DNA from: a virus
Lineage: Duplodnaviria; Heunggongvirae; Uroviricota; Caudoviricetes
Reading direction: 5' to 3' (one strand)
IMG/VR virus record: IMGVR_UViG_2703718824_000015
DNA length: 10,462 nucleotides
Both the position numbers and the translations under genes were made by a program. This document shows positions 1-10,462 of the stretch, in pieces. Positions within the stretch are counted from its first letter, which is position 1; the number at the start of each line of letters is the position of its first letter. The notes below the pieces were generated by a model that was not told the DNA's origin, searched no databases, and saw only the letters and a list, made by a program, of their open reading frames with translations.

Positions 1-240
1 TATGCGTGATATTTACCTCGAAACAATAGACCGCGCATTTCTTGCACTTTCTCACAGTGAAAACATGCTGGAAATATTGCGCATATAGCTTGAAACACTT
101 GGCGACAATGAACGCGACAAACAAAAATCAAGAATTGCCACGGCATTAATAACGATTCTTGAGCATGTAATAATGGAACTGCAAGAAATAGATCTATTGC
201 ACGACAGATATAAAGAACAGCACACCGGAGAATAAAAATA

Positions 241-540
241 ATGAAATTTAAATATTCTGGCTTAACTGCCAGTGGCAACACTCACCCTAAATTTACGCGC
301 GGTGATATTTACCGCGACCAGTACGGCGGCACGGTAATGATTAAGGGCGTGGCGGGACGGTGCGTAACTTACCGCCGTGAAGGTTACGAATATGATTGCG
401 TGATGCCTGTTTATCAGTTCCGGCGTGATTTTTCTCTTGTGCAGGCCGTACCGCGTAACGTGCCCACCAGCAGGGAGAAAGCACGCGCCAATATTCAGAA
501 GATGAAAAACATGATTAACGGATTCAGGGGCAAAAAATGA
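241..540 (+). CDS. hypothetical small protein (99 aa), translationally coupled to the downstream primase gene
   Basis: ATG at 241 with GGAG about 10 nt upstream; stop TGA overlaps the ATG of the next gene (ATGA at 537-540); no recognisable motif. Confidence 0.5.
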   Translation: MKFKYSGLTASGNTHPKFTRGDIYRDQYGGTVMIKGVAGRCVTYRREGYEYDCVMPVYQFRRDFSLVQAVPRNVPTSREKARANIQKMKNMINGFRGKK

Positions 541-2291
541 AACTGGCACCGAACGTAAAACAGCAGCCACGCGGCATAAAACACAAAGAAACAGAAGTCA
601 TTATTTTTGCGGGTAGTGATGCCTGGTCACACGCGAAACAATGGCAGGAACATGACGCGCGTATGGCCGGAGATAATGAGCCTCCTGTGTGGCTTGGGGA
701 GCAGCAGTTATCAGAACTGGATAAGCTGCAAATTGTGCCGGAAGGCAGAAAATCCGTGCGCATATTCAGGGCCGGATATCTTGCGCCAGTAATGATAAAG
801 GCGATTGGTCAGAAGCTGGCGGCGGCAGGCGTACAGGATGCAAATTTTTACCCTGATGGTATGCACGGTCAGAAGGTGGAGAACTGGCGCGAATATCTGG
901 CCAGTGAGCGCCAGAATCTTTCTGATGGGCTGGTTATTGAGCTTCCTGTAAAGCAAAAGGCGCAACTTTCGCAGATGGCGGACAGTGAGCGCGCTCAACT
1001 TCTTGCCGGACGATTTGATGGCGTTTGCGTGCATCCTGAAAGTGAAATCGTTCACGTATGGCGCGGCGGGGTATGGTGTCCGGTCAGCACAATGGAACTT
1101 AGCCGCGAAATGGTGGCGATCTATTCAGAGCACAGGGCCACTTTCAGCAAGCGCGTAATCAATAACGCCGTGGAAGCGTTAAAAGTTATTGCCGAACCAA
1201 TGGGCGAGCCGTCCGGCGATTTGCTGCCGTTTGCCAATGGTGCGCTTGACCTGAAAACGGGGGAATTTTCCCCGCACACGCCGGAGAACTGGATCACCAC
1301 GCACAACGGTATTGAGTACACGCCACCAGCACCAGGGGAGAACATCCGCGATAACGCGCCAAACTTTCATAAATGGCTTGAGCACGCAGCCGGAAAAGAC
1401 CCGCGCAAGATGATGCGGATATGTGCCGCGCTGTACATGATTATGGCGAACCGGTACGACTGGCAGATGTTTATTGAGGCCACCGGAGACGGCGGGAGCG
1501 GTAAAAGTACATTCACACACATAGCCAGCCTTCTGGCAGGGAAACAGAACACGGTAAGCGCTGAAATGACATCGCTTGATGATGCTGGTGGACGTGCGCA
1601 GGTTGTCGGGAGTCGCCTTATCGTCCTGGCTGACCAGCCGAAATATACAGGCGAAGGAACGGGCATCAAGAAAATCACGGGCGGTGACCCCGTGGAAATT
1701 AACCCGAAATATGAAAAGCGTTTTACGGCGGTAATCAGGGCGGTGGTGCTGGCGACCAACAACAACCCGATGATATTCACCGAACGGGCCGGAGGTGTGG
1801 CACGTCGTCGCGTGATTTTCCGTTTCGACAATATCGTCAGTGAGGCCGAAAAAGACAGGGAGCTACCGGAAAAGATTGCGGCTGAAATCCCTGTCATTAT
1901 CCGCCGATTGCTGGCGAACTTTACCGACTCTGAGAAAGCACGGGCTTTACTACTGGAACAGCGTGACGGTGATGAAGCTCTGGCAATAAAGCAACAGACG
2001 GATCCGGTTATTGAGTTTTGCCAGTTCCTGAATTTTCTGGAGGAAGCGCGCGGCCTGATGATGGGGGGCGGTGGTGATTCAGTGAAGTACACGACCAGGA
2101 ACAGCCTTTACCGCGTCTATCTGGCGTTTATGGCATACGCAGGCAGGAGCAAACCGCTAAACGTGGCTGAGTTCAGCAAGGCCATGAAGCCAGCGGCGAA
2201 AGTTTACGGGCATGAATATATTACGCGAAAAGTTAAGGGAGTAACGCAGACCAACGCAATTACAACAGACGATTGCGACGCGTTTTTATAA
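537..2291 (+). CDS. P4/PICI-type replication initiator: primase with SF3-helicase-like P-loop NTPase domain
   Basis: 584-aa ORF with Walker A motif GDGGSGKST followed by a hydrophobic stretch ending in D (LIVLAD); overall resemblance to phage/plasmid primase P4-family C-terminal domain proteins; iteron array lies immediately downstream. Confidence 0.85.
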   Translation: MKLAPNVKQQPRGIKHKETEVIIFAGSDAWSHAKQWQEHDARMAGDNEPPVWLGEQQLSELDKLQIVPEGRKSVRIFRAGYLAPVMIKAIGQKLAAAGVQDANFYPDGMHGQKVENWREYLASERQNLSDGLVIELPVKQKAQLSQMADSERAQLLAGRFDGVCVHPESEIVHVWRGGVWCPVSTMELSREMVAIYSEHRATFSKRVINNAVEALKVIAEPMGEPSGDLLPFANGALDLKTGEFSPHTPENWITTHNGIEYTPPAPGENIRDNAPNFHKWLEHAAGKDPRKMMRICAALYMIMANRYDWQMFIEATGDGGSGKSTFTHIASLLAGKQNTVSAEMTSLDDAGGRAQVVGSRLIVLADQPKYTGEGTGIKKITGGDPVEINPKYEKRFTAVIRAVVLATNNNPMIFTERAGGVARRRVIFRFDNIVSEAEKDRELPEKIAAEIPVIIRRLLANFTDSEKARALLLEQRDGDEALAIKQQTDPVIEFCQFLNFLEEARGLMMGGGGDSVKYTTRNSLYRVYLAFMAYAGRSKPLNVAEFSKAMKPAAKVYGHEYITRKVKGVTQTNAITTDDCDAFL

Positions 2292-2304
2292 TTTTTTGTA
2301 AAAG

Positions 2305-2531
2305 CCCTCTACCCCATCTACCTGAATAAAATAAACGCATATTATTCAACATGATAAGTGGGTAGAGGGCCAGGTAGAAGGCTAATAAAAGCTCTCTACC
2401 TCTTCTACCTGATTTTATCAGTTTCAGGTAGCAGGGTAGACGGCAGGTAGAGGAGCCAAAAAAGCTATCTACCCGCTGAAAGCCGCGCCATTACTGACAT
2501 GATGAGCATTCGGGTAGATGGGTAGAGGGGG
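2305..2531. repeat. iteron array / putative replication origin (about 12 copies of a GGTAGA(G)-type heptamer, mostly in tandem pairs, in both orientations)
   Basis: Direct reading: CTCTACC 2307-2313, ATCTACC 2316-2322, GGTAGAG 2361-2367, GGTAGAA 2373-2379, CTCTACC 2394-2400, TTCTACC 2403-2409, GGTAGCA 2427-2433, GGTAGAC 2435-2441, GGTAGAG 2446-2452, ATCTACC 2467-2473, GGTAGAT 2513-2519, GGTAGAG 2521-2527; AT-rich spacers; position directly 3' of the initiator gene. Confidence 0.6.
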
Positions 2532-2576
2532 GGAGGCACAACTCAAAACTTTTTAAACGAGGGGGTAAAAATAAAT

Positions 2577-2855
2577 ATGCACACTTCAGGGAAATTTAAT
2601 AAATCACTCAAAAAACACAGAGACAGAACAGAACCGAAATATCGCGCGTTAGACATGACAGAGCACGCTTTAAAGGTGGCAATTAGAACGATAGACCGCC
2701 ACGCGGGGGAAGGATACGCGAAGGAACATCCCGACCTGATAAGCGCATTCATGACCACAGCAGCGGCAAACTTTGCCACGCTAACAGAACGGGAGATTGC
2801 CGAAGCGGAACAGGTGACAACCATCAACGTTAAAACCGGAGAGGTGGAATTATGA
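2577..2855 (+). CDS. hypothetical protein (92 aa), first gene of a small operon with the SSB-like gene
   Basis: ATG at 2577 with GAGGGGG about 10 nt upstream; stop overlaps the next ATG (ATGA at 2852-2855); no recognisable motif. Confidence 0.5.
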   Translation: MHTSGKFNKSLKKHRDRTEPKYRALDMTEHALKVAIRTIDRHAGEGYAKEHPDLISAFMTTAAANFATLTEREIAEAEQVTTINVKTGEVEL

Positions 2856-3262
2856 CGGCACAGATAGCCGCTTACGGGCGGCTGGTGGACGACCCGCAGG
2901 TAAAACAGACCAGCAAGGGCACACCGATGACGCTGGCGCGTATGGCGGTATCTTTGCCATGCAGCCAGGCACAGGACGGACAGGCGACGTTATGGTTATC
3001 GGTTATCGCATTTGGCAAACAGGCCGATTTCCTGGCTAAACATCAAAAAGGCGATGTTGCCAGCGTATCCGGCACGATGCAGGTAAGCCAGTGGACCGGA
3101 CAGAACGGGGAAACGCGGCGGGGGTATCAGGTTATTGCAGACAGCGTAATCAGTGCCCGCGCGGCACGTCCAGGCGGGAACAGACGCAAAACCACAGGCA
3201 CACAGGGTAATCAGCCACCAGCGGGAGGCGATGACCCTTACGGTGACGGTATTCCGTTCTGA
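2852..3262 (+). CDS. ssb: single-stranded DNA-binding protein-like (OB fold with acidic C-terminal tail)
   Basis: 136 aa; conserved SSB-like core pattern (GRLVDDP...W..V.AFGK.A......KGD...V.G......W....G..R) followed by a Gly/Pro/Gln-rich linker and a C-terminal DDPYGDGIPF tail resembling the canonical SSB DDDIPF tip; GGAGAGG RBS upstream. Confidence 0.65.
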   Translation: MTAQIAAYGRLVDDPQVKQTSKGTPMTLARMAVSLPCSQAQDGQATLWLSVIAFGKQADFLAKHQKGDVASVSGTMQVSQWTGQNGETRRGYQVIADSVISARAARPGGNRRKTTGTQGNQPPAGGDDPYGDGIPF

Positions 3263-3272
3263 GGGGGTGACG

Positions 3273-3521
3273 ATGGTACATGACCGCATAGCGGAGGAAC
3301 TCGAGGCAAAAGGCTTTTACCGGAGGGCGTCGGCGCGATGGGGTGAAGTCATGCAACTGGTGGAGACAGACAAGGAACGGCATCAGGTTACGATGCGACG
3401 GCTGGAATGTTCCAGGAAGGCACAGAGGCCACCGGAGCCGCCAACGGAGAACTACGCAGACCTGAGAAATGCAGTAAATCGCACTTACGCAGACATGGGG
3501 CTGAGCAAATTAGCAGAGTAG
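3273..3521 (+). CDS. PerC-family transcriptional activator homologue
   Basis: 82-aa product MVHDRIAEELEAKGFYRRASARWGEVMQLVETDKERH... matches the PerC/Pch signature (E.LE.KG.[WY]RRAA.RW..V.....E.ER); start chosen at ATG 3273 (GAGGGGG 6 nt upstream) rather than the ORF-track start 3153, which would overlap the SSB gene. Confidence 0.65.
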   Translation: MVHDRIAEELEAKGFYRRASARWGEVMQLVETDKERHQVTMRRLECSRKAQRPPEPPTENYADLRNAVNRTYADMGLSKLAE

Positions 3522-3543
3522 GAATATCAGAACCACACCATAC

Positions 3544-3566
3544 AGCCGGAGCAATCCGGCTTTTTG
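3544..3566 (+). terminator. rho-independent terminator after the PerC-like gene
   Basis: Stem AGCCGGA / TCCGGCT with GCAA loop, followed by a TTTTT run extended by further T-tracts. Confidence 0.5.
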
Positions 3567-3825
3567 TTATTTTTTGTAAATTATTTGTTCGTGGTTGTTC
3601 CACGTTGTTCACTGAGCGGATCGGCATATTTTACCCGAACTGAATCATGATTATTCTCGCCCGTGGTGCCAGGACGCTGGGGCCACTTTCCCGCCTGTTA
3701 ATGTGCTCGCCAATATTCATTACCAGGCGGGAAAACGATCGGTGCGATTGCTGATTTCCTTATGAAAAACGGTTGAGTGTTTGCCGCGTCCTGGAGTTCC
3801 TTACTTAACCCCAGGACTTTTTTTT
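3567..3825 (+). promoter_or_regulatory. structured intergenic region upstream of the head operon (phased T-tract/TTGTTC repeats, 11-bp inverted repeat, hairpin plus T8); probable late promoter/control region
   Basis: TTGTTA 3564, TTGTAA 3575, TTGTTC 3585, 3595, 3605 at about 10-bp phasing; perfect inverted repeat TTTCCCGCCTG 3687-3697 / CAGGCGGGAAA 3724-3734; GTCCTGG 3788-3794 / CCAGGAC 3811-3817 followed by T8 abutting the capsid ATG. Confidence 0.3.
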
Positions 3826-4983
3826 ATGCCGAGAATAATCGAATTACGCCAGCAGAAAACCGCCATTAAAAATCAGATGCGCGACATGCTGGAGAACGCT
3901 GAAAAAGAAAACCGCAGTCTTAACGATGCTGAGGGCGCAAAATTTGACGAATTACGCGCTAAAGCTGAATCCCTCGATAAAGACATTTCCCGCCTTGAAG
4001 CCATTGCAGACGAAGAGCGCAGCAAGCCAGGTAAAAGCAGTCAGACCACTGACCCCGCAGAACTACGAAACTACATTCTGACGGGTGAAACCCGCGCATT
4101 AAGTACAGGCGTTCCCGCTGATGGTGGTTATACCGTTATCCCCGAACTGAACACCGAAATCATGCGAATGCTGACGGATGAATCCACCATGCGCCGCATC
4201 TGTACCGTGAAGAAAATCAGCAGCAACGAGTTTAAGCAGCTTGTTTCCGCTGGCGGTGCGACCGTTAACCACGGTGAAGAGGGTAAGGCACGCGAACAGA
4301 CCAGCACCCCGCAGATTAACGAGGTGAGCATTAAGCTGTATCCGGTCTATGCGTACCCGCGCACCACACAGGAAATCGTGGATTTTTCCGATGTGGACAT
4401 CCTTTCATGGCTGACGGGTGAGATTGGCGACACCTTCACGGAAACCGAAGAAAGCGATCTGGTTGTGGGCGACGGTGACAAAAAAGCAAAAGGTTTTTTA
4501 TCCGTACCCCGTGCAGAGAAGAACGACAAAGAGCGTGATTTTGGTACGTTGCAGGTAATTAAACCTTCCGAATCTCTGGCGTGGACATCTGCGGACCCGT
4601 TGATCGACCTGAAATTTGCATTACGTAAAAAATACCGCAAAAACGCGGTCTGGGTGGTTAACTCCACGACGGCGGCAAAACTTCAGAAGGTGAAGAACGC
4701 GAACGGTGATTACATCTGGCGCGACCGTTTACAGGCGGGTGATCCTGATACGTTGCTGGGCCTTCCGGTCGAATATCTGGAGTTTATGCCTGATAACGTT
4801 ATTGCCCTGGGTGACTTCAAACGCGGTTACTACATTGTTGATCACGAAACAGGTGTTCGCACCAGACCGGACAACCTCACAGAGCCGGGCTTCATCAAAA
4901 TTTTCACGCAGAAATATTTAGGCGGTGGCGTGGTGGATTCGAACGCGATCAAGATTCTGGAACTGCCACAGGACGACGATTAA
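3826..4983 (+). CDS. major capsid protein, HK97 family, with N-terminal coiled-coil (delta/scaffold-like) domain
   Basis: 385-aa product; charged N-terminal region predicted coiled-coil (ELRQQKTAIKNQMRDMLENAEKENRSL...), then HK97-type capsid body with C-terminal GDPDTLLGLPV and GDFKRGYYIVD motifs; start set at first ATG (3826), the ORF track extends to TTG 3781; no obvious SD. Confidence 0.85.
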   Translation: MPRIIELRQQKTAIKNQMRDMLENAEKENRSLNDAEGAKFDELRAKAESLDKDISRLEAIADEERSKPGKSSQTTDPAELRNYILTGETRALSTGVPADGGYTVIPELNTEIMRMLTDESTMRRICTVKKISSNEFKQLVSAGGATVNHGEEGKAREQTSTPQINEVSIKLYPVYAYPRTTQEIVDFSDVDILSWLTGEIGDTFTETEESDLVVGDGDKKAKGFLSVPRAEKNDKERDFGTLQVIKPSESLAWTSADPLIDLKFALRKKYRKNAVWVVNSTTAAKLQKVKNANGDYIWRDRLQAGDPDTLLGLPVEYLEFMPDNVIALGDFKRGYYIVDHETGVRTRPDNLTEPGFIKIFTQKYLGGGVVDSNAIKILELPQDDD

Positions 4984-4994
4984 CAGCATACAGA

Positions 4995-5022
4995 AGGGGC
5001 TTAAAAGCCCCTTTAGTGTTTT
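4995..5022 (+). terminator. putative intrinsic terminator/attenuator after the capsid gene
   Basis: Stem AGGGGCT / AGCCCCT with TAAA loop followed by TTTAGTGTTTT. Confidence 0.4.
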
Positions 5023-5037
5023 ATGGGTGAAAAAATT

Positions 5038-5595
5038 ATGAAGAGTATGGAAATCCGGTCATCGGAAATCACCACCAGCGGAGCCGGTACGCTGACGGGC
5101 TACGTTGTTCGCTGGGATAAGCTTTCAGAACTGTTATGGGGTGAGTTTTACGAAAAATTCCAGCGGGGAGCGTTTACTGAATGGCTTGCAGCGGGTAATG
5201 ACGTTCGCGGCCTGTATGAGCATGACCACAGTATGTTACTGGGGCGTACCCGTTCCGGCACGCTGAAACTGGAAGAGGACGAAACAGGGTTACGCTTTGA
5301 ACTGACCCCACCGGATACCAGCACAGGGCGGGACGTTATCGAACTGGTTAAACGTGGTGATATATCCGGCATGAGCTTTGGCTTTCGTTCCCGTAAGGAT
5401 GTATGGGATACCACAACAGATCCATGCGTGCGCACCGTGCTGGTGGCGGAACTGTACGAAATTACCGTTACATCCGTTCCGGCTTACCCTGATTCCGGCG
5501 TGGAGCTGGCCCGCCGTTCCCTGTATGAGCAGCACCCCGAAAAAATGCCGCGTGCGGATAATCGCCGCTGGTGGGTGGATTTAGCGGGGGTGTGA
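5038..5595 (+). CDS. prohead maturation protease, HK97 family
   Basis: Resembles HK97 prohead protease (Peptidase S78/U35): N-terminal G.L.GY.V.W...........E.F..GAF pattern and conserved central region; start ambiguous (ATG at 5023, 5038 or 5047), 5038 chosen for GGGTGA spacing. Confidence 0.8.
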   Translation: MKSMEIRSSEITTSGAGTLTGYVVRWDKLSELLWGEFYEKFQRGAFTEWLAAGNDVRGLYEHDHSMLLGRTRSGTLKLEEDETGLRFELTPPDTSTGRDVIELVKRGDISGMSFGFRSRKDVWDTTTDPCVRTVLVAELYEITVTSVPAYPDSGVELARRSLYEQHPEKMPRADNRRWWVDLAGV

Positions 5596-5596
5596 T

Positions 5597-6808
5597 ATGT
5601 GGCCTTTCAGAAGAAAAAAAGAGCAGCGCAGCATGACGCTTGATGAATTTATGGCGCTGGCTGGCACATCGAACACGGGGGCGGGTGAGTACGTATCATC
5701 GGGGACAGCGGAATCACTGCCCGCCGTCATGAACGCCGTCACGGTCATCTCTGAGGCGGTGGCTACCATGCCGTGTTACCTGTACCTGGTACGCAATGAG
5801 AAGGGGAAGGAGGCCCGCGAGTGGCTTGATTCTCATCCGGTCGATCACATCCTCAACGAGCGCCCGAACGCATGGCAAACCCCCTACCAGTTTAAGCGAA
5901 TGATGATCCGCCACTGCCTGTTAAACGGTAATGCTTATGCGGTGATTCAGTGGGGGCGTGATGGTTTTCCGGCGGCTTTACATCCTTACCCGCCGCAGTC
6001 GGTGAACGTGGAGCAGACAGGCGAACACAACTGGCGCTACTGCATCACTGACGCCTACACCGGAAACACCCGCAACTATTTACCGTGGGAAGTACTTCAC
6101 CTTCGTTACTCCACGGATGACGGCTTTATGGGGCGCTCACCTGTAACCATCTGCCGCGAATCGCTGGGGCTTGGGCTGGCCCAACAACGCCACGGCGCGA
6201 GCGTGATGCGTGATGGCATGATGGCGGCAGGGGTTATCACGTCAGGCGAATGGCTGGACGGCGTGAAGGGCAAACAGGCATTAGCCGCACTGGAACGCTA
6301 CAAAGGGGCCAGAAACGCCGGAAAAACGCCCATCCTTGAAGGGGGGATGAGCTATCAGCAGCTGGGCATGAGTAATCAGGATGCTGAATGGCTGGCCTCC
6401 CGTCGCTTCACCATTGAAGACATCGCCCGAATGTTCAACGTCTCGCCGATTTTTTTGCAGGAATACAGCAACAGCACCTACAGCAATTTCAGCGAGGCAA
6501 GCCGCGCATTTCTCACCATGACGATGCGCCCGTGGCTGGCGAACTTTGAGCAGCAGATAAAAAACGCCCTGCTGGTGGCCTCGCCTGTACCTGGTATCCG
6601 GTATCAGGTGGAGTTTGACAGCGCGGACCTGTTACGGGCCACACCTGGCGAACGCTTTGCCACCTATGAGCGCGGCATCAAATCCGGCGTAATGTGTCCG
6701 AACGAAGCCCGCGAACGTGAAGGACTGTCACCGCGTGATGGTGGTGATGAGTTCAGCCAGGCATGGAAACAGGAAGTAAAAATCAGCGAGGGAGAAAAAC
6801 CGGAATGA
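5597..6808 (+). CDS. portal protein, HK97 family
   Basis: 403-aa product with typical portal N-terminal region (SGE.V....A..L.AV..AV..ISE.VA..P) and overall HK97-portal-like length and composition; GGGGG RBS upstream; stop overlaps next gene start. Confidence 0.85.
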   Translation: MWPFRRKKEQRSMTLDEFMALAGTSNTGAGEYVSSGTAESLPAVMNAVTVISEAVATMPCYLYLVRNEKGKEAREWLDSHPVDHILNERPNAWQTPYQFKRMMIRHCLLNGNAYAVIQWGRDGFPAALHPYPPQSVNVEQTGEHNWRYCITDAYTGNTRNYLPWEVLHLRYSTDDGFMGRSPVTICRESLGLGLAQQRHGASVMRDGMMAAGVITSGEWLDGVKGKQALAALERYKGARNAGKTPILEGGMSYQQLGMSNQDAEWLASRRFTIEDIARMFNVSPIFLQEYSNSTYSNFSEASRAFLTMTMRPWLANFEQQIKNALLVASPVPGIRYQVEFDSADLLRATPGERFATYERGIKSGVMCPNEAREREGLSPRDGGDEFSQAWKQEVKISEGEKPE

Positions 6809-7143
6809 ACATAGGGCGATTGCGTGACAGGATAACGATTCAGACCCTGAAACAGACCAGGGATATAACCGGCGAAATACTCGAAACGTGGGAGGACGGT
6901 CACACACTCTGGGCAAGCGTGAACATGGTCAGCAGCAAGGAGGCCATTTCATCGGGTGCAGAGCTGGCGATTGGTACCGTAAGGATCTGGATACGGTACC
7001 GGAAGGACATCAACGCCACCAGCCGGATAAAGGTCAGTACGGGGCCGCTGGCGGGGCGTGTACTGAATATCATCGGGCAGCCGCTGCCGGATGCCGCCAG
7101 GACACGCCTTGAAATTCTTTGTCGTGAGGGCGCGGAAAAATGA
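6805..7143 (+). CDS. head closure / head-tail adaptor protein (SPP1 gp16-like)
   Basis: 112 aa starting MNIGRLRDRITIQ, a typical N-terminus for this family; ATGA overlap with the portal stop and with the next gene. Confidence 0.7.
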   Translation: MNIGRLRDRITIQTLKQTRDITGEILETWEDGHTLWASVNMVSSKEAISSGAELAIGTVRIWIRYRKDINATSRIKVSTGPLAGRVLNIIGQPLPDAARTRLEILCREGAEK

Positions 7144-7436
7144 CAGAAGAACTTATCACCCTGGAAGAAGTGAAACTCCATTGCCGCATCGATGGCGACG
7201 AGGAAGACCAGTTAATCAGCGGATACATTGCCGCATCGCTTGAGGCGTGCCAGATACACATAGGCAGGCGCTTTGATGACGGGCTGGAGTTCACGCCAGC
7301 CATAAAGATTGGCTGCATGATGTTTATCGCTCACCTGTATGAGAATCGCCAGATTGTCGCGGATAACGCAAAAACACGCGTACCCATGACGATTGGCGCA
7401 CTCTGGACGGCTTACCGTGATGTGGGGGTGTACTGA
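7140..7436 (+). CDS. gp6-like head-tail connector protein
   Basis: 98 aa; N-terminus ITLEEVKLHCRIDGDEEDQLISGYIAAS is the characteristic gp6-like motif; translationally coupled on both sides. Confidence 0.65.
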   Translation: MTEELITLEEVKLHCRIDGDEEDQLISGYIAASLEACQIHIGRRFDDGLEFTPAIKIGCMMFIAHLYENRQIVADNAKTRVPMTIGALWTAYRDVGVY

Positions 7437-7876
7437 TGCCGTGGCAACCATTAAGACGATGCACAGAACCAGGCTGTAACAGGCGCGTTAAATCCGGCAA
7501 GTGTGAAGAGCACAGGCGGGCGGCATGGCGTGCAGAGGATGCCAGACGAGGACACCGCCGCGCGCGTGGATATTCCAGACAGTGGGACAAATACCGCGCC
7601 ATGTATCTGAGTAAAAACCCGTTATGCGTGCGATGCCTTGAGAAGGGGATATATACGCCCGCCGTGGTGGTGGATCACATTATCCCGATTAATGGCGGTG
7701 ATGATGTTCTCTTCTGGCCCGAATGGAACCATCAACCATTGTGTCAGGCGTGTCATAACCAGAAAACGAAATGGCTTGATCCGGCAACAAAAAGCAAGCG
7801 TGCCGCAGGTGGATTTCGTGAAGAGGAAGAACGGGCCGCTAACCGCAATAACTGGATGTATGACGCTGATGAATGA
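7436..7876 (+). CDS. HNH endonuclease (terminase-associated, HK97 gp74-like)
   Basis: 146 aa; Cys pairs (C..C, C..C) and the HNH core DHIIPINGG...N.QPLC..CHN.KT; located immediately upstream of the terminase small-subunit gene. Confidence 0.8.
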   Translation: MPWQPLRRCTEPGCNRRVKSGKCEEHRRAAWRAEDARRGHRRARGYSRQWDKYRAMYLSKNPLCVRCLEKGIYTPAVVVDHIIPINGGDDVLFWPEWNHQPLCQACHNQKTKWLDPATKSKRAAGGFREEEERAANRNNWMYDADE

Positions 7877-8045
7877 GCGGGAACAAAACCGCCTTATCCG
7901 TGGACTTATAAGGCAGCGTGACGCATGGAAGACACAGGAAACAGGGCATAAAGATAAAGCGTCAGGACGTGCAGAACGCATCACAGCGAAGCGATTAACC
8001 GACCGTGACCGCGAGGTTATGGAATGTTTCCGCAATCGCTGGTGA
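7860..8045 (+). CDS. hypothetical small basic protein (about 61 aa), overlapping the 3' end of the HNH gene
   Basis: ORF in a different frame from HNH (ATG at 7860 or 7869); Arg/Lys-rich product (...NEREQNRLIRGLIRQRDAWKTQETGHKDKASGRAERITAKRLTDRDREVMECFRNRW); no motif recognised, may be spurious. Confidence 0.3.
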   Translation: MTLMNEREQNRLIRGLIRQRDAWKTQETGHKDKASGRAERITAKRLTDRDREVMECFRNRW

Positions 8046-8165
8046 TGCTGTATGACGGGGTGGGGGGCGTTTTCAGGACAAACCCGACCCCGCCGGGCAC
8101 CGAACGCCTCCTCAAATTTTTATGCACGGGAATTTTTTGAAAAATAATCTGGCGAAAAAATAAGC
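8046..8165. other. candidate cos / packaging-initiation region between the HNH and terS genes
   Basis: Noncoding 120 bp with G-run GACGGGGTGGGGGGCG (8054-8069) and imperfect partner CCCGACCCCGCCGGG (8083-8097), flanked by AT-rich tracts; position matches cos in HK97-like phages; purely positional and compositional. Confidence 0.25.
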
Positions 8166-8522
8166 ATGGCAAGACCACCGAAAGCCCCCGCCTACCTGGA
8201 TGATATCGCCGTGAAGCAGTGGCGGGAAAAATCGCGGCAGCTTGCGGAACGGGGTGACCTGACCCCCGCCGACTGGAGTAATCTGGAACTGTATTGCGTC
8301 AATTACTCGATATACCGGAAAGCCGTCGCAGACCTTGCGGCGCGCGGGTTCAGCATTGTTAACAGTCAGGGCGGAGAGAGCAGAAACCCCGCATTAAGCG
8401 CGAAATCCGACGCGGAAAGAGTGATGATAAAAATGGCCTCCTTGCTCGGTTTTGACCCGATAAGCCGCCGTAAAAATCCACCGGAAACAGAAGAAGAGGA
8501 CGAGCTTGACCGCCTGGAATAA
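8166..8522 (+). CDS. terS: terminase small subunit (P27 family-like)
   Basis: 118 aa; resembles P27-family small terminase, including the N-terminal region and acidic C-terminus (EEEDELDRLE); directly upstream of and overlapping the large terminase gene. Confidence 0.8.
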   Translation: MARPPKAPAYLDDIAVKQWREKSRQLAERGDLTPADWSNLELYCVNYSIYRKAVADLAARGFSIVNSQGGESRNPALSAKSDAERVMIKMASLLGFDPISRRKNPPETEEEDELDRLE

Positions 8523-10167
8523 GTACGCAGAAGACGTAAAAACGGGCAAAATTCCGGCCTGTAAACGGCTGAAACAGGCCGTTAAACGGTACTTTTCGGA
8601 CCTTGAAAGCCCCCTTTACACGTTCGATCGTGAGGTTGTGGAGCGGTTTATTGCCTTTTCCAGGGTGTGCCCGCACGTAAAAGGGCCGATGCGTGGCAGA
8701 CCCATTGAGCTGGAGCCGTGGCAGCAGTTCGCCTTTGCGTGCATCCTCGGCTTTAAGGTTAAGGCCACCGGACGGCGCAAATACACGAGCGCCTTTATCG
8801 AAGTGCCGCGCAAAAATGCGAAATCCACGACCGCCGCGATTCTGGCTAACTGGTTTCTGATTATGGAGAACGGGCAGCAGGATATTTACACCGCAGCGGT
8901 GAGCCGTGACCAGGCGCGGATCGTTTTTGATGATGCGCGTCAGATGTGCCTTTTATCCCGACCGTTACGCAGGCGGGTGAATATTCAGGCCCACAAGGTG
9001 ATGCACCCGAAAAGCAACAGCCTGTTAAAGCCGCTGGCAGCAAAAGCGGCAACCATCGAGGGAACAAACCCCAGCCTTTCCATCGTGGACGAATACCACC
9101 TACACCCCGATAACGGCGTTTATTCCGCGCTTGAGCTGGGGATGGGCGCACGTCCCGAAGGGCTGTTATTTGCCATTACCACATCGGGCAGTAACGTCGT
9201 TTCAACCTGTAAACAGCACTATGATTATTGCTGCCAGATCCTGGACGGCGAAGAGGTCAACGATTCAATTTTTGTGCTGATTTACGAGCTGGACGACGAA
9301 AACGAGGTTGATGATCCGGCGATGTGGATAAAGGCTAACCCTAACATCGATGTTTCCGTGGATCGTGAAAAACTGGCCTCAACCATCCAGAAAGCGCGGG
9401 GTATTCCGTCGCAATGGGTGGAGATGATGACAAAGCGATTTAATATCTGGTGCCAGGGGGCTACCCCGTGGATGGGTAACGGCGCATGGGCTGAGTGTGC
9501 CGGAACGTTCACGGAGGAAGATTTACACGGGCAGGAGTGTTACGCGGGGCTGGACTTATCATCAACCAGCGATATTTCCAGCGTGTGCTATGCCTTTCCG
9601 GTCGGTAAAAATATCATGCTGGTTTCCCGTCATTATCTGCCGGAGTTCCAGCTACAGAACCCCGCCAATAAAAACCGCGCTGTCTATCGCCAGTGGGCTA
9701 AAGCGGGCTGGATACGCACAACGCCAGGTGACTGCATTGATTACGACCGGATCAGAGATGACATCATGCAGGATGCGGAGAAATTTAATATCAGGCTGGT
9801 GGGCTTTGATACGTGGAACGCCACGCATCTCAGGACGCAATTACAGGGGGCTGGTTTTGAGGTGGAGCCGTTCCCGCAAACCTACCTCAGATTCAGTCCG
9901 GCGGCGAAATCGTTCGAAGTTTTTGTTAACCGCAGGGTGATTGTGCATCGTGGCGATCCGGTGTTGTCCTGGTCGATGAGTAACGTCGTGATGCAGAGTG
10001 ACGCGAACGCCAATATCAAGCCGAACAAGAAAAAATCACCGAACAAGATAGACCCGAGCGTGGCGGCGCTGATGGCGTTTGGTACATTCCAGGCAGAGCA
10101 TGAGGATTTTGCTTTTGATATAAGCGACAGCCACCGCCAGAAACTGGAAGAATTTAGCGGGGTGTAA
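8506..10167 (+). CDS. terL: terminase large subunit (Terminase_1 family)
   Basis: 553 aa; N-terminal YAEDVKTGKIPACKRLKQAVKRYFSDLE typical of large terminases, deviant Walker A (VPRKNAKST), C-terminal nuclease-like region; likely TTG start at 8506 with AAGAGGA SD 6 nt upstream, overlapping the terS 3' end. Confidence 0.9.
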   Translation: MTAWNKYAEDVKTGKIPACKRLKQAVKRYFSDLESPLYTFDREVVERFIAFSRVCPHVKGPMRGRPIELEPWQQFAFACILGFKVKATGRRKYTSAFIEVPRKNAKSTTAAILANWFLIMENGQQDIYTAAVSRDQARIVFDDARQMCLLSRPLRRRVNIQAHKVMHPKSNSLLKPLAAKAATIEGTNPSLSIVDEYHLHPDNGVYSALELGMGARPEGLLFAITTSGSNVVSTCKQHYDYCCQILDGEEVNDSIFVLIYELDDENEVDDPAMWIKANPNIDVSVDREKLASTIQKARGIPSQWVEMMTKRFNIWCQGATPWMGNGAWAECAGTFTEEDLHGQECYAGLDLSSTSDISSVCYAFPVGKNIMLVSRHYLPEFQLQNPANKNRAVYRQWAKAGWIRTTPGDCIDYDRIRDDIMQDAEKFNIRLVGFDTWNATHLRTQLQGAGFEVEPFPQTYLRFSPAAKSFEVFVNRRVIVHRGDPVLSWSMSNVVMQSDANANIKPNKKKSPNKIDPSVAALMAFGTFQAEHEDFAFDISDSHRQKLEEFSGV

Positions 10168-10180
10168 TGAGGTCAGCAGC

Positions 10181-10462
10181 ATGACAGAAGCCGAAATAAC
10201 GGGATTAATCCGCCGCGTTGCCGGAATCAGCCAGCAGGCTGACGAACAGGCCACGCAGCCGGACAGCGTGACAGCCGAAAACTATGCGCGTGTTGTTGCT
10301 GAGGTGATGCGCCGTGATGGTATAGAACTTAATGGCGTGGATATGCGCAACATACGAACCAGAGTTCTTGAGTTGCTGGCCTACCGTCGCCGTGTGGAGA
10401 TGTATCGGGAGAAGGAGAAAATAACGTACCACTGGAAGAAGCCGGAGCGGTTGCGGCGGTAA
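10181..10462 (+). CDS. hypothetical protein (93 aa) downstream of terL
   Basis: ATG at 10181 with GAGG SD about 8 nt upstream; complete ORF ending TAA at the window edge; no motif recognised. Confidence 0.45.
   Translation: MTEAEITGLIRRVAGISQQADEQATQPDSVTAENYARVVAEVMRRDGIELNGVDMRNIRTRVLELLAYRRRVEMYREKEKITYHWKKPERLRR

Follow-up and report, generated by a model that had tools for sequence, protein, structure and literature searches.

The capsid-first, terminase-last packaging operon of a viral record is very probably that of an EcCIEDL933-type cf-PICI

Identity of the element

The stretch of DNA analyzed here, referred to as the window, comprises 10,462 nucleotides of IMG/VR record IMGVR_UViG_2703718824_000015. 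We conclude with high confidence that the window represents the right-hand two thirds of an EcCIEDL933-type capsid-forming phage-inducible chromosomal island (cf-PICI), a phage satellite, and that its gene order, that of the gammaproteobacterial cf-PICI clade, is fixed and ancient and not the outcome of a recent rearrangement. The window contains a replication module (D5-type primase and SSB), a PerC-like regulator and a complete nine-gene packaging operon. The capsid-first, terminase-last order of this operon is real. It is also an already published hallmark of cf-PICIs and hence not new, as Alqurainy et al. describe exactly this order for proteobacterial cf-PICIs. The value for this window is therefore the right label, together with the recognition of a mosaic allele (below), and not a new biological principle. 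The correct annotation of cf-PICIs matters: they are abundant, they assemble heads of their own and fit them with phage tails, and according to the published work they are able to cross species boundaries.

Gene content of the window

Genes were assigned by Pfam and PHROGs profile matches, and all genes and hairpins described here lie on the + strand. The operon starts with an HK97-fold major capsid protein (MCP, 385 aa) at 3826-4983 (PF05065, 1.8e-61), followed by an S78 prohead maturation protease at 5023-5595 (PF04586, 7e-48; phrog_80) and a portal protein at 5597-6808 (PF04860, 2.5e-90; phrog_12). Then come the head closure protein Hc1 at 6805-7143 (PF05521, 1.7e-23; phrog_25), one of the two genes named head-tail adaptor/connector in cf-PICI papers, and the gp6-like head-tail adaptor Ad1 at 7140-7436 (PF05135, 8.4e-12; phrog_40). 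The remaining genes encode an HNH endonuclease, which assists terminase as an accessory factor in packaging, at 7436-7876 (PF01844; phrog_144, 8e-45), a 61-aa ORF (orf61) at 7860-8045, TerS of the P27/Terminase_4 family at 8166-8522 (PF05119, 1.3e-23; phrog_83), and TerL with ATPase and nuclease domains at 8506-10167 (PF03354 and PF20441; phrog_9, 5.9e-179). Every ORF of the module is intact.

A cf-PICI is expected to carry its own packaging module, and all eight components (capsid, prohead protease, portal, head-tail adaptor, head-tail connector, HNH, TerS and TerL) gave strong Pfam and PHROG matches. The ORF coordinates and junctions place them in the conserved order capsid-protease-portal-head connectors-hnh-terS-terL. 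An earlier note on this DNA had read the same order, with all genes on one strand, and the profile matches confirmed the gene families. They support every assignment, which disposes of the reservation that these ORFs might not be head and packaging proteins. The gene list given there for 3826-10167 is right for the genes that it named, but it overlooked orf61 between HNH and terS. This ORF is homologous to gene 1792 of EcCIEDL933, with 100% identity across 60 aa to the ORF in EDL933; it had no Pfam or PADLOC match, and a PADLOC search of the small ORFs and HNH found nothing.

Direct reading of the sequence bore out the overlaps that the note had reported at 6805, 7140 and 7436. These are ATGA at 6805-6808 (portal/Hc1) and at 7140-7143 (Hc1/Ad1), and TGATG at 7434-7438 (Ad1/HNH junction). 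The protease/portal spacer is 1 nt, and the HNH/orf61 and TerS/TerL junctions are 17-nt overlaps. Only two real gaps exist in the operon: one of 39 nt behind the capsid gene, containing a hairpin, and one of 120 nt ahead of terS.

On its replication/regulation side, the island includes a DUF4222 protein at 241-540 (PF13973, 1.9e-23), with a homolog at the matching position in both the E. coli PCN033 and EDL933 islands. The primase/replicase module expected of a cf-PICI is present as a D5-type DNA primase/helicase of 584 aa at 537-2291 (PF08706 (D5_N), PF19263 (DUF5906) and PF03288 (Pox_D5); phrog_864, 5e-175) and a single-stranded DNA-binding protein (SSB) at 2852-3262 (PF00436, 5.8e-17; 99.3% identical to EcCIEDL933). 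Directly upstream of the packaging operon lies a PerC-family transcriptional activator at 3273-3521 (PF06069, 1e-35), and the matching gene in the PCN033 and EDL933 islands is annotated as PerC family as well. A terminator-like hairpin at 3544-3561, a consensus match from the pattern scan, may close this upstream module. The pattern scan found no sigma-70-like promoter upstream of the capsid gene on the + strand. After TerL, a 93-aa protein at 10181-10462 (phrog_1561, unknown function, 2.9e-56) occupies a variable accessory position; it is 87% identical to its EDL933 counterpart, and of the codons that differ 12 are synonymous and 12 nonsynonymous.

Neither tail nor lysis genes turned up in the ORF list or in the Pfam and PHROGs matches across the 10.46 kb of the window, and the PCN033 and EDL933 islands, both complete, have none either; the contiguous tail and lysis modules of an HK97-like prophage are thus absent from all three. 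The window does not reach as far as the integrase, alpA or the att sites. The integrase and the AlpA-type regulator lie beyond its left edge and are present in the PCN033 island and EcCIEDL933. The latter two islands measure ~15.2 kb and 15.4 kb, respectively, within the cf-PICI range of about 10-18 kb, and the window itself is left-truncated.

Comparison with EcCIEDL933 and the PCN033 island

EcCIEDL933 is the prototype cf-PICI, located in E. coli O157:H7 EDL933 (NZ_CP008957.1, 1680329-1694760). It is colinear with window positions 3539-10462 at 97.2% nt identity, and its gene order matches from SSB through the ORF following TerL. The head proteins are 99.7% (MCP), 97.4% (protease), 99.3% (portal), 96.4% (Hc1) and 100% (Ad1) identical; the corresponding values for the packaging proteins are 99.3% (HNH), 100% (orf61), 100% (TerS) and 98.0% (TerL). 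The nine module proteins thus range from 96.4 to 100%, and the published range for packaging proteins among cf-PICI family members is 50-90% identity to EcCIEDL933. The window MCP shares 384 of 385 residues with PDB 9GYI, a cryo-EM structure named in its paper as the EcCIEDL933 capsid. Because 125 codon differences from the prototype are synonymous and 25 nonsynonymous, the module is under purifying selection. Unlike the window, EDL933 has one more small ORF ahead of the capsid gene.

The nearest full-length relative is the island in tqsA of E. coli PCN033 (NZ_CP006632.1, about 1754000-1769500), which is colinear with the window from end to end at 96.8-96.9% nt identity, that is, about 3% divergence. 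The PCN033 island is flanked by split tqsA and carries integrase, AlpA-like HTH and Icd-like genes at its left end, whereas the EDL933 island sits between roxA and phoQ. The best match to the window among complete E. coli genomes was 96.9%, with no exact match, and related elements were present in 1729 of 5426 such genomes. A 1.6 kb record, ECO95 1-6-1, was considered as EDL933's own island and rejected, since it is a different cf-PICI variant. Three other stretches of the EDL933 chromosome were inspected and are ordinary lambdoid prophages.

The two islands differ in their resemblance to the left part of the window. The primase of EcCIEDL933 is of the DUF927 type, whereas that of the window is of the D5 type, with 98.5% aa identity to PCN033 and only 64% over 233 aa to EDL933. 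Since the left part thus carries a different replication module, the window is, as judged from its sequence, a mosaic allele that combines an EcCIEDL933-type packaging module with a primase of another type.

A conserved non-coding block upstream of terS

The spacer at 8046-8165 contains a block that is conserved across genera: GGGGTGGGGG..GACAAA..CCTCAAATTTTTAyGCACGG..TTTTTTGAAAATAA. It is 99.2% identical to EDL933 and is placed relative to HNH and terS as the HK97 cos is. Its conservation and position suggest that cos probably lies within 8046-8165. Alignment of the block with the HK97 cos junction gave a score of 23, against 20.5 +/- 3.5 for shuffled sequences, which is not significant; because the score is no better than that of the shuffles, we do not claim homology to the HK97 cos. 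The termini of the vB_KppS-Ant record were rejected as a definition of cos, as about 80 bp of the conserved block are missing there relative to homologs.

Conservation of the order and alternative explanations

The earlier note had proposed that synteny be compared in other genomes. In our survey, the capsid-to-TerL order proved not to be due to chance: it was retained in 58 loci under 30 genus labels, and no locus had head genes downstream of TerL. Identical order was seen in E. coli, Shigella, Klebsiella, Proteus, Xenorhabdus, Gilliamella, Pasteurellaceae and others, at protein identities of 57-99%; the Hc1 gene was absent from nine surveyed loci. Other gammaproteobacterial cf-PICIs (elements of 10-16.5 kb) have the same capsid-protease-portal-Hc1-Ad1-HNH-terS-terL order and show 38-84% protein identity, the connectors being the most divergent (Hc1, 24-55%). 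Named relatives are a locus in K. pneumoniae ATCC 13883, the 'phage' vB_KppS-Ant and the Pasteurella 'phages' Pmp7 and Pmp8. The K. pneumoniae locus may be KpCIDSM30104, provided that the strain is DSM 30104. In databases, several cf-PICIs still carry the label 'phage' or cryptic prophage.

Decayed copies were also encountered, namely four remnant loci and, in Shigella flexneri, a copy from which a deletion has removed ~92 bp spanning window positions 8095-8185. Their existence, and the position of the left end beyond the window, leave some room for the window being derived from a cf-PICI but immobile by now, for example because the integrase, alpA or att sites beyond its edge were lost, so that the order would be a family fossil. 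We consider this improbable, given the intact module ORFs, the near identity of the 8046-8165 spacer to that of the functional prototype, the mostly synonymous substitutions relative to that prototype, and the completeness of the closely similar PCN033 island.

Sequence searches separated the module from phages. For MCP, satellite-type records were at least 58% identical and every true phage among the matches at most 40%; for TerL, the values were at least 68% and at most 36%, the phage values being those of the closest true-phage homologs found. By this identity gap, capsid and TerL stand apart from their phage homologs, in agreement with the capsid and TerL trees of Alqurainy et al., in which cf-PICIs form satellite-only clades apart from phages. 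The gap, the trees and the nucleotide identity to EcCIEDL933 together uphold the proposal of the earlier note that this is a satellite-type lineage distinct from prophage late operons. They also bear on whether the window is a cryptic, degraded HK97-like prophage without tail and lysis genes, as the EDL933 element was once treated. All structural proteins do belong to HK97-type families, and the annotation of the ST64B record cites similarity to 'CP-933C'. Even so, this origin is very unlikely: the tail-less architecture of roughly 15 kb recurs throughout the surveyed loci, the module is under purifying selection and far from true phages, both the PCN033 island and the EDL933 island have a PICI-like left arm, and published work concludes that cf-PICIs are not recent products of prophage degradation. 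That a standard prophage late operon was recently rearranged in this genome only, a reading that nothing favors except the non-canonical order itself, can practically be dismissed, as the order is identical across genera of the Enterobacterales, Pasteurellales and Orbales.

Proposed life cycle

In the paper on EcCIEDL933, which numbers the genes 1786 to 1792, mutation of each packaging gene abolished transfer of the island but not of the phage, with a severe reduction in the case of 1792. Mutations in the capsid or packaging genes of the helper abolished phage transfer but not island transfer, and helper tail-gene mutations abolished both. In addition, alpA was needed for induction of EcCIEDL933. 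Given its 96-100% protein identity to the prototype, we infer that the window copy would likewise be induced by a helper, make its own small capsids and depend on phage tails only. In such a cycle, the helper phage would turn on the island alpA, leading to excision and replication of the island. The island capsid protein, protease and portal would then form a small T=4 HK97-fold head. The island HNH, TerS and TerL would cut the island cos and the head would be filled with roughly 15 kb of island DNA only. Finally, Hc1 and Ad1 would close the head and dock phage-derived tails.

A hairpin after the capsid gene

The pattern scan identified a GC-rich hairpin with a T-run at 4993-5014, right after the capsid stop codon, which resembles an intrinsic terminator. 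A GGGGC-loop-GCCCC hairpin was found in the MCP-protease spacer of 50 of the 52 surveyed loci. HK97 likewise has an annotated putative terminator after its capsid gene, gp5. The hairpin is a putative intra-operon attenuator: placed after the first gene, it would lower transcription of the downstream genes, whose products are needed in far fewer copies. It is conceivable, though we regard it as doubtful, that the capsid-first order and the post-capsid hairpin form a built-in stoichiometry device. The capsid gene would then be fully transcribed, and read-through into the protease, portal, connectors and terminase would be attenuated. If this were so, the satellite would obtain correct protein ratios without a phage antiterminator, and the frozen gene order in the gammaproteobacterial cf-PICI clade would be explained. 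We found no description of such a device in the cf-PICI literature examined. Two minor details, the post-capsid hairpin and the conserved non-coding block upstream of terS, may be undescribed.

Comparison with known systems

HK97-like phages (HK97 and the published helper HK106) have the same protein families as the window, and share with it the HNH-assisted cos terminase and the HK97-fold capsid with prohead protease. Their order differs. The baseline in the earlier note, terS-terL-portal-protease-capsid-connectors, is correct: HK97 and ST64B have the canonical terS-terL-portal-protease-MCP-Ad1-Hc1, in HK97-like phages followed by tail genes, and the window instead runs MCP-protease-portal-Hc1-Ad1-HNH-terS-terL. 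Its description of the layout as non-canonical stands for the position and order of the head genes but not for the contiguity of HNH, cos, terS and terL. HNH is located at the right-hand end and terS at the left-hand end of the HK97 genome, and this contiguity is canonical because circularization joins the two ends. What departs from the canonical layout in the window is therefore only where the head genes lie and how they are ordered among themselves, including Hc1-Ad1, which is reversed relative to Ad1-Hc1 of HK97. The head is reported to be T=7 in HK97 and T=4 in the satellite.

Among solved capsids, the next closest after 9GYI is that of the Rhodobacter capsulatus gene transfer agent (PDB 6TB9 and 6TBA; E about 9e-47), a distant relative that is a different kind of element and not a family member. 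E. coli PICIs of the classical kind (EcCICFT073 and EcCIED1a) have, according to the paper, the left arm of int, alpA and rep and alpA-mediated helper induction in common with cf-PICIs. They differ in having no capsid, portal, connector or TerL genes, and redirect the packaging machinery of the helper.

Identity with EcCIEDL933 and the PCN033 island

The major capsid protein (MCP) of the window differed at 1 residue of 385 from PDB 9GYI, which its depositing paper names as the cryo-EM model of the capsid of EcCIEDL933, the prototype capsid-forming phage-inducible chromosomal island (cf-PICI) of E. coli O157:H7 EDL933. We located EcCIEDL933 in the roxA-phoQ interval of the EDL933 chromosome (NZ_CP008957.1 1680329-1694760). 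It aligned without gaps to window 3539-10462 at 97.2% nucleotide identity, and all nine packaging-module proteins were 96.4-100% identical. The nearest full-length relative, a ~15 kb island of E. coli PCN033, was colinear with the entire window at 96.8-96.9%. This island splits tqsA, begins with a tyrosine integrase, a short AlpA-like HTH gene and Icd-like genes, and carries neither tail nor lysis genes. Related sequence was present in 1729 of 5426 complete E. coli genomes, nearly always in the chromosome.

The window does not reach the integrase, alpA and att sites. Ahead of the packaging operon it encodes a DUF4222 protein, a D5-type primase (537-2291), an SSB (2852-3262) and a PerC-family transcriptional activator (3273-3521; PF06069, 1e-35); prophage late operons are not preceded by such a set. 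EcCIEDL933 encodes a DUF927 primase, whereas the D5 primase of the window is of the PCN033 type (98.5% identical). The window is therefore a mosaic allele that joins the packaging module of the prototype to another replication module. When window 1-3500 was aligned with locus L007 (12743-16483), nucleotide identity broke at window 958-2601 and 3499-3539. The activator gene is the last before the packaging operon, and a terminator-like hairpin (3544-3561) comes after it; the activator might control that operon or interplay with host PerC/Pch regulons.

Organization of the packaging operon

Window 3826-10167 is a co-directional, closely packed operon on the + strand. It encodes the MCP (3826-4983; PF05065, 1.8e-61), an S78 prohead protease (5023-5595), the portal (5597-6808), head closure protein Hc1 (6805-7143), a gp6-like adaptor, Ad1 (7140-7436), an HNH endonuclease (7436-7876), a P27-type small terminase, TerS (8166-8522), and the large terminase, TerL (8506-10167). 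Pfam and PHROGs bore out every head and packaging assignment of the earlier note, and direct reading of the sequence confirmed that genes overlap by ATGA at 6805 and at 7140 and by TGATG at 7434-7438. The note had overlooked a 61-aa ORF (orf61, 7860-8045) that overlaps the 3' end of the HNH gene. This ORF had no family match; it is the homolog of EcCIEDL933 gene 1792, to which it corresponds by position, counting from the capsid gene as 1786. Of the 58 order-keeping loci described below, tblastn detected it in only ~22. The nine genes from capsid through TerL differed from EcCIEDL933 by 125 synonymous and 25 nonsynonymous codons. The ORF after TerL (10181-10462; phrog_1561, function unknown) differed by 12 and 12, and is far less constrained than the packaging genes.

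The operon has only two true spacers, 39 nt after the capsid gene and 120 nt before terS. The first contains a GC-rich, terminator-like hairpin with a T-run directly after the capsid stop codon (4993-5014). A GGGGC-loop-GCCCC hairpin occupied the capsid-protease spacer in 50 of 52 surveyed loci (all but L041 and L055) and recurred despite turnover of its loop and flanks. A putative terminator is likewise annotated after the HK97 capsid gene. From this arrangement, a capsid gene placed first and followed by a hairpin would yield more capsid than downstream transcript.

The second spacer (8046-8165) probably contains cos, as judged from its sequence and position. It was 99.2% identical to that of EcCIEDL933 and included a non-coding block, GGGGTGGGGG..GACAAA..CCTCAAATTTTTAyGCACGG..TTTTTTGAAAATAA, conserved across genera though the flanking proteins had diverged to 60-80% identity. 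HK97 cos is placed likewise with respect to HNH and terS; direct comparison of the block with HK97 cos gave no significant similarity. In a Shigella flexneri SFBU1023 locus (L011), ~92 bp matching window 8095-8185 are absent at about 9681-9687. The deletion removes this block and the first part of terS from a copy that is otherwise 97-98% identical and is probably packaging-dead.

Gene order in related loci and in phages

A synteny survey anchored on TerL, with one genome per GTDB species, retrieved 80 loci. It showed MCP, protease, portal, Ad1, HNH, TerS and TerL in the order of the window in 58 loci under 30 genus labels, from Enterobacterales, Pasteurellales and Orbales. Head genes followed TerL in none of the 80. 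The four loci that had sufficient upstream DNA yet an incomplete module have decayed to remnants; in two, fragments of the lost head genes persist at the same relative positions.

Nine loci (L022, L030, L033, L035, L060, L061, L070, L071 and L086) form a head-closure-less sub-variant. They leave no room for an Hc1 gene because the portal abuts Ad1 and Ad1 abuts HNH, and Hc1 was not found among the other ORFs scanned in the L071 island. The latter, from Yersinia aleksiciae, carries an Abi-alpha-like abortive-infection gene directly after TerL on the opposite strand (11765-13498, - strand), which fits the expectation of the cf-PICI papers that defence cargo lies beside the packaging module. Single genomes of Xenorhabdus khoisanae and X. 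kozodoii contained five or six distinct TerL loci from the family (L023, L029, L032, L045, L046, L050, L066, L069, L072 and L073); an apparent capsid-protease duplication in L072 lies beside a 100-N scaffold gap and likely reflects misassembly.

In HK97 the order is terS-terL-portal-protease-MCP-Ad1-Hc1, with the tail genes next, and ST64B has the same canonical arrangement. Because the HNH gene of HK97 lies at the right genome end, HNH-cos-terS is contiguous in its circular form. Against this baseline only three features of the window are non-canonical: the head genes precede HNH instead of following terL, the head trio is reversed (MCP-protease-portal), and so is the connector pair (Hc1-Ad1). 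An EDL933 lambdoid tailed prophage (L005 3210-11566), some genes of which are frameshifted or truncated, is annotated HNH-terS-terL-capsid (645 aa)-hypothetical-portal-connector-head closure; therefore, capsid before portal alone is not unique to satellites.

In phage databases, all bona fide phages were at most 40% (MCP) or 36% (TerL) identical to the window. Records at least 58% (MCP) or 68% (TerL) identical fell into three groups only: 10-16.5 kb entries sharing its architecture (vB_KppS-Ant, Pmp7 and Pmp8), one 3.8 kb fragment, and the last 16 kb of the Klebsiella phage P12620-1 record of 106 kb (PQ569648.1 90.6-106.5 kb, L010). The P12620-1 record ends in an entire cf-PICI and is probably a misassembled chimera. 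Several GenBank "phage" records of 10-16.5 kb are really cf-PICIs (LR881103.1, L002; OR544138.1; OR544139.1, L008).

Comparison with published cf-PICIs

Both cf-PICI preprints have reportedly since appeared in peer-reviewed journals. Alqurainy et al. named the family and stated its gene order as a family trait (bioRxiv 10.1101/2022.09.08.507074). In that work, mutation of each EcCIEDL933 packaging gene abolished island transfer (severely reduced it for 1792) and left the helper phage unaffected; helper capsid or packaging mutations blocked the phage and not the island, and helper tail mutations blocked both. For induction, the island's alpA and a helper phage (HK106, for example) were both needed. 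The capsid and TerL phylogenies proposed in the earlier note are likewise already in print there: cf-PICIs form satellite-only clades with long branches to phages, and the authors rejected both a recent origin from phages and an origin by prophage degradation. The later preprint (10.1101/2025.02.11.637232) reported the T=4 capsid structure, showed that particles are released without tails, and traced the choice of fitting tails to the adaptor and connector genes. SatelliteFinder defines the family by a set of 11 core components and forbids tail and holin genes.

The steps shown experimentally for EcCIEDL933 can be carried over to the window by near-identity. A helper would trigger alpA expression, leading to island excision and replication; capsid, protease and portal, all encoded by the island, would build a T=4 head; the island's HNH-TerS-TerL complex would cut cos and package the DNA; and Hc1 and Ad1 would close the head and dock borrowed tails.

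The earlier note was correct that the order capsid-protease-portal-Hc1-Ad1-HNH-terS-terL is non-canonical, and this is a published cf-PICI trait; its proposal of a separate lineage, of satellite type, is sound given the near-identity of every module protein to EcCIEDL933. What little is new lies in the hairpin after the capsid gene, the candidate cos block and those family members that lack a head-closure gene. The window itself is closely allelic to the most thoroughly studied member of a family already described, and the finding is a known one.
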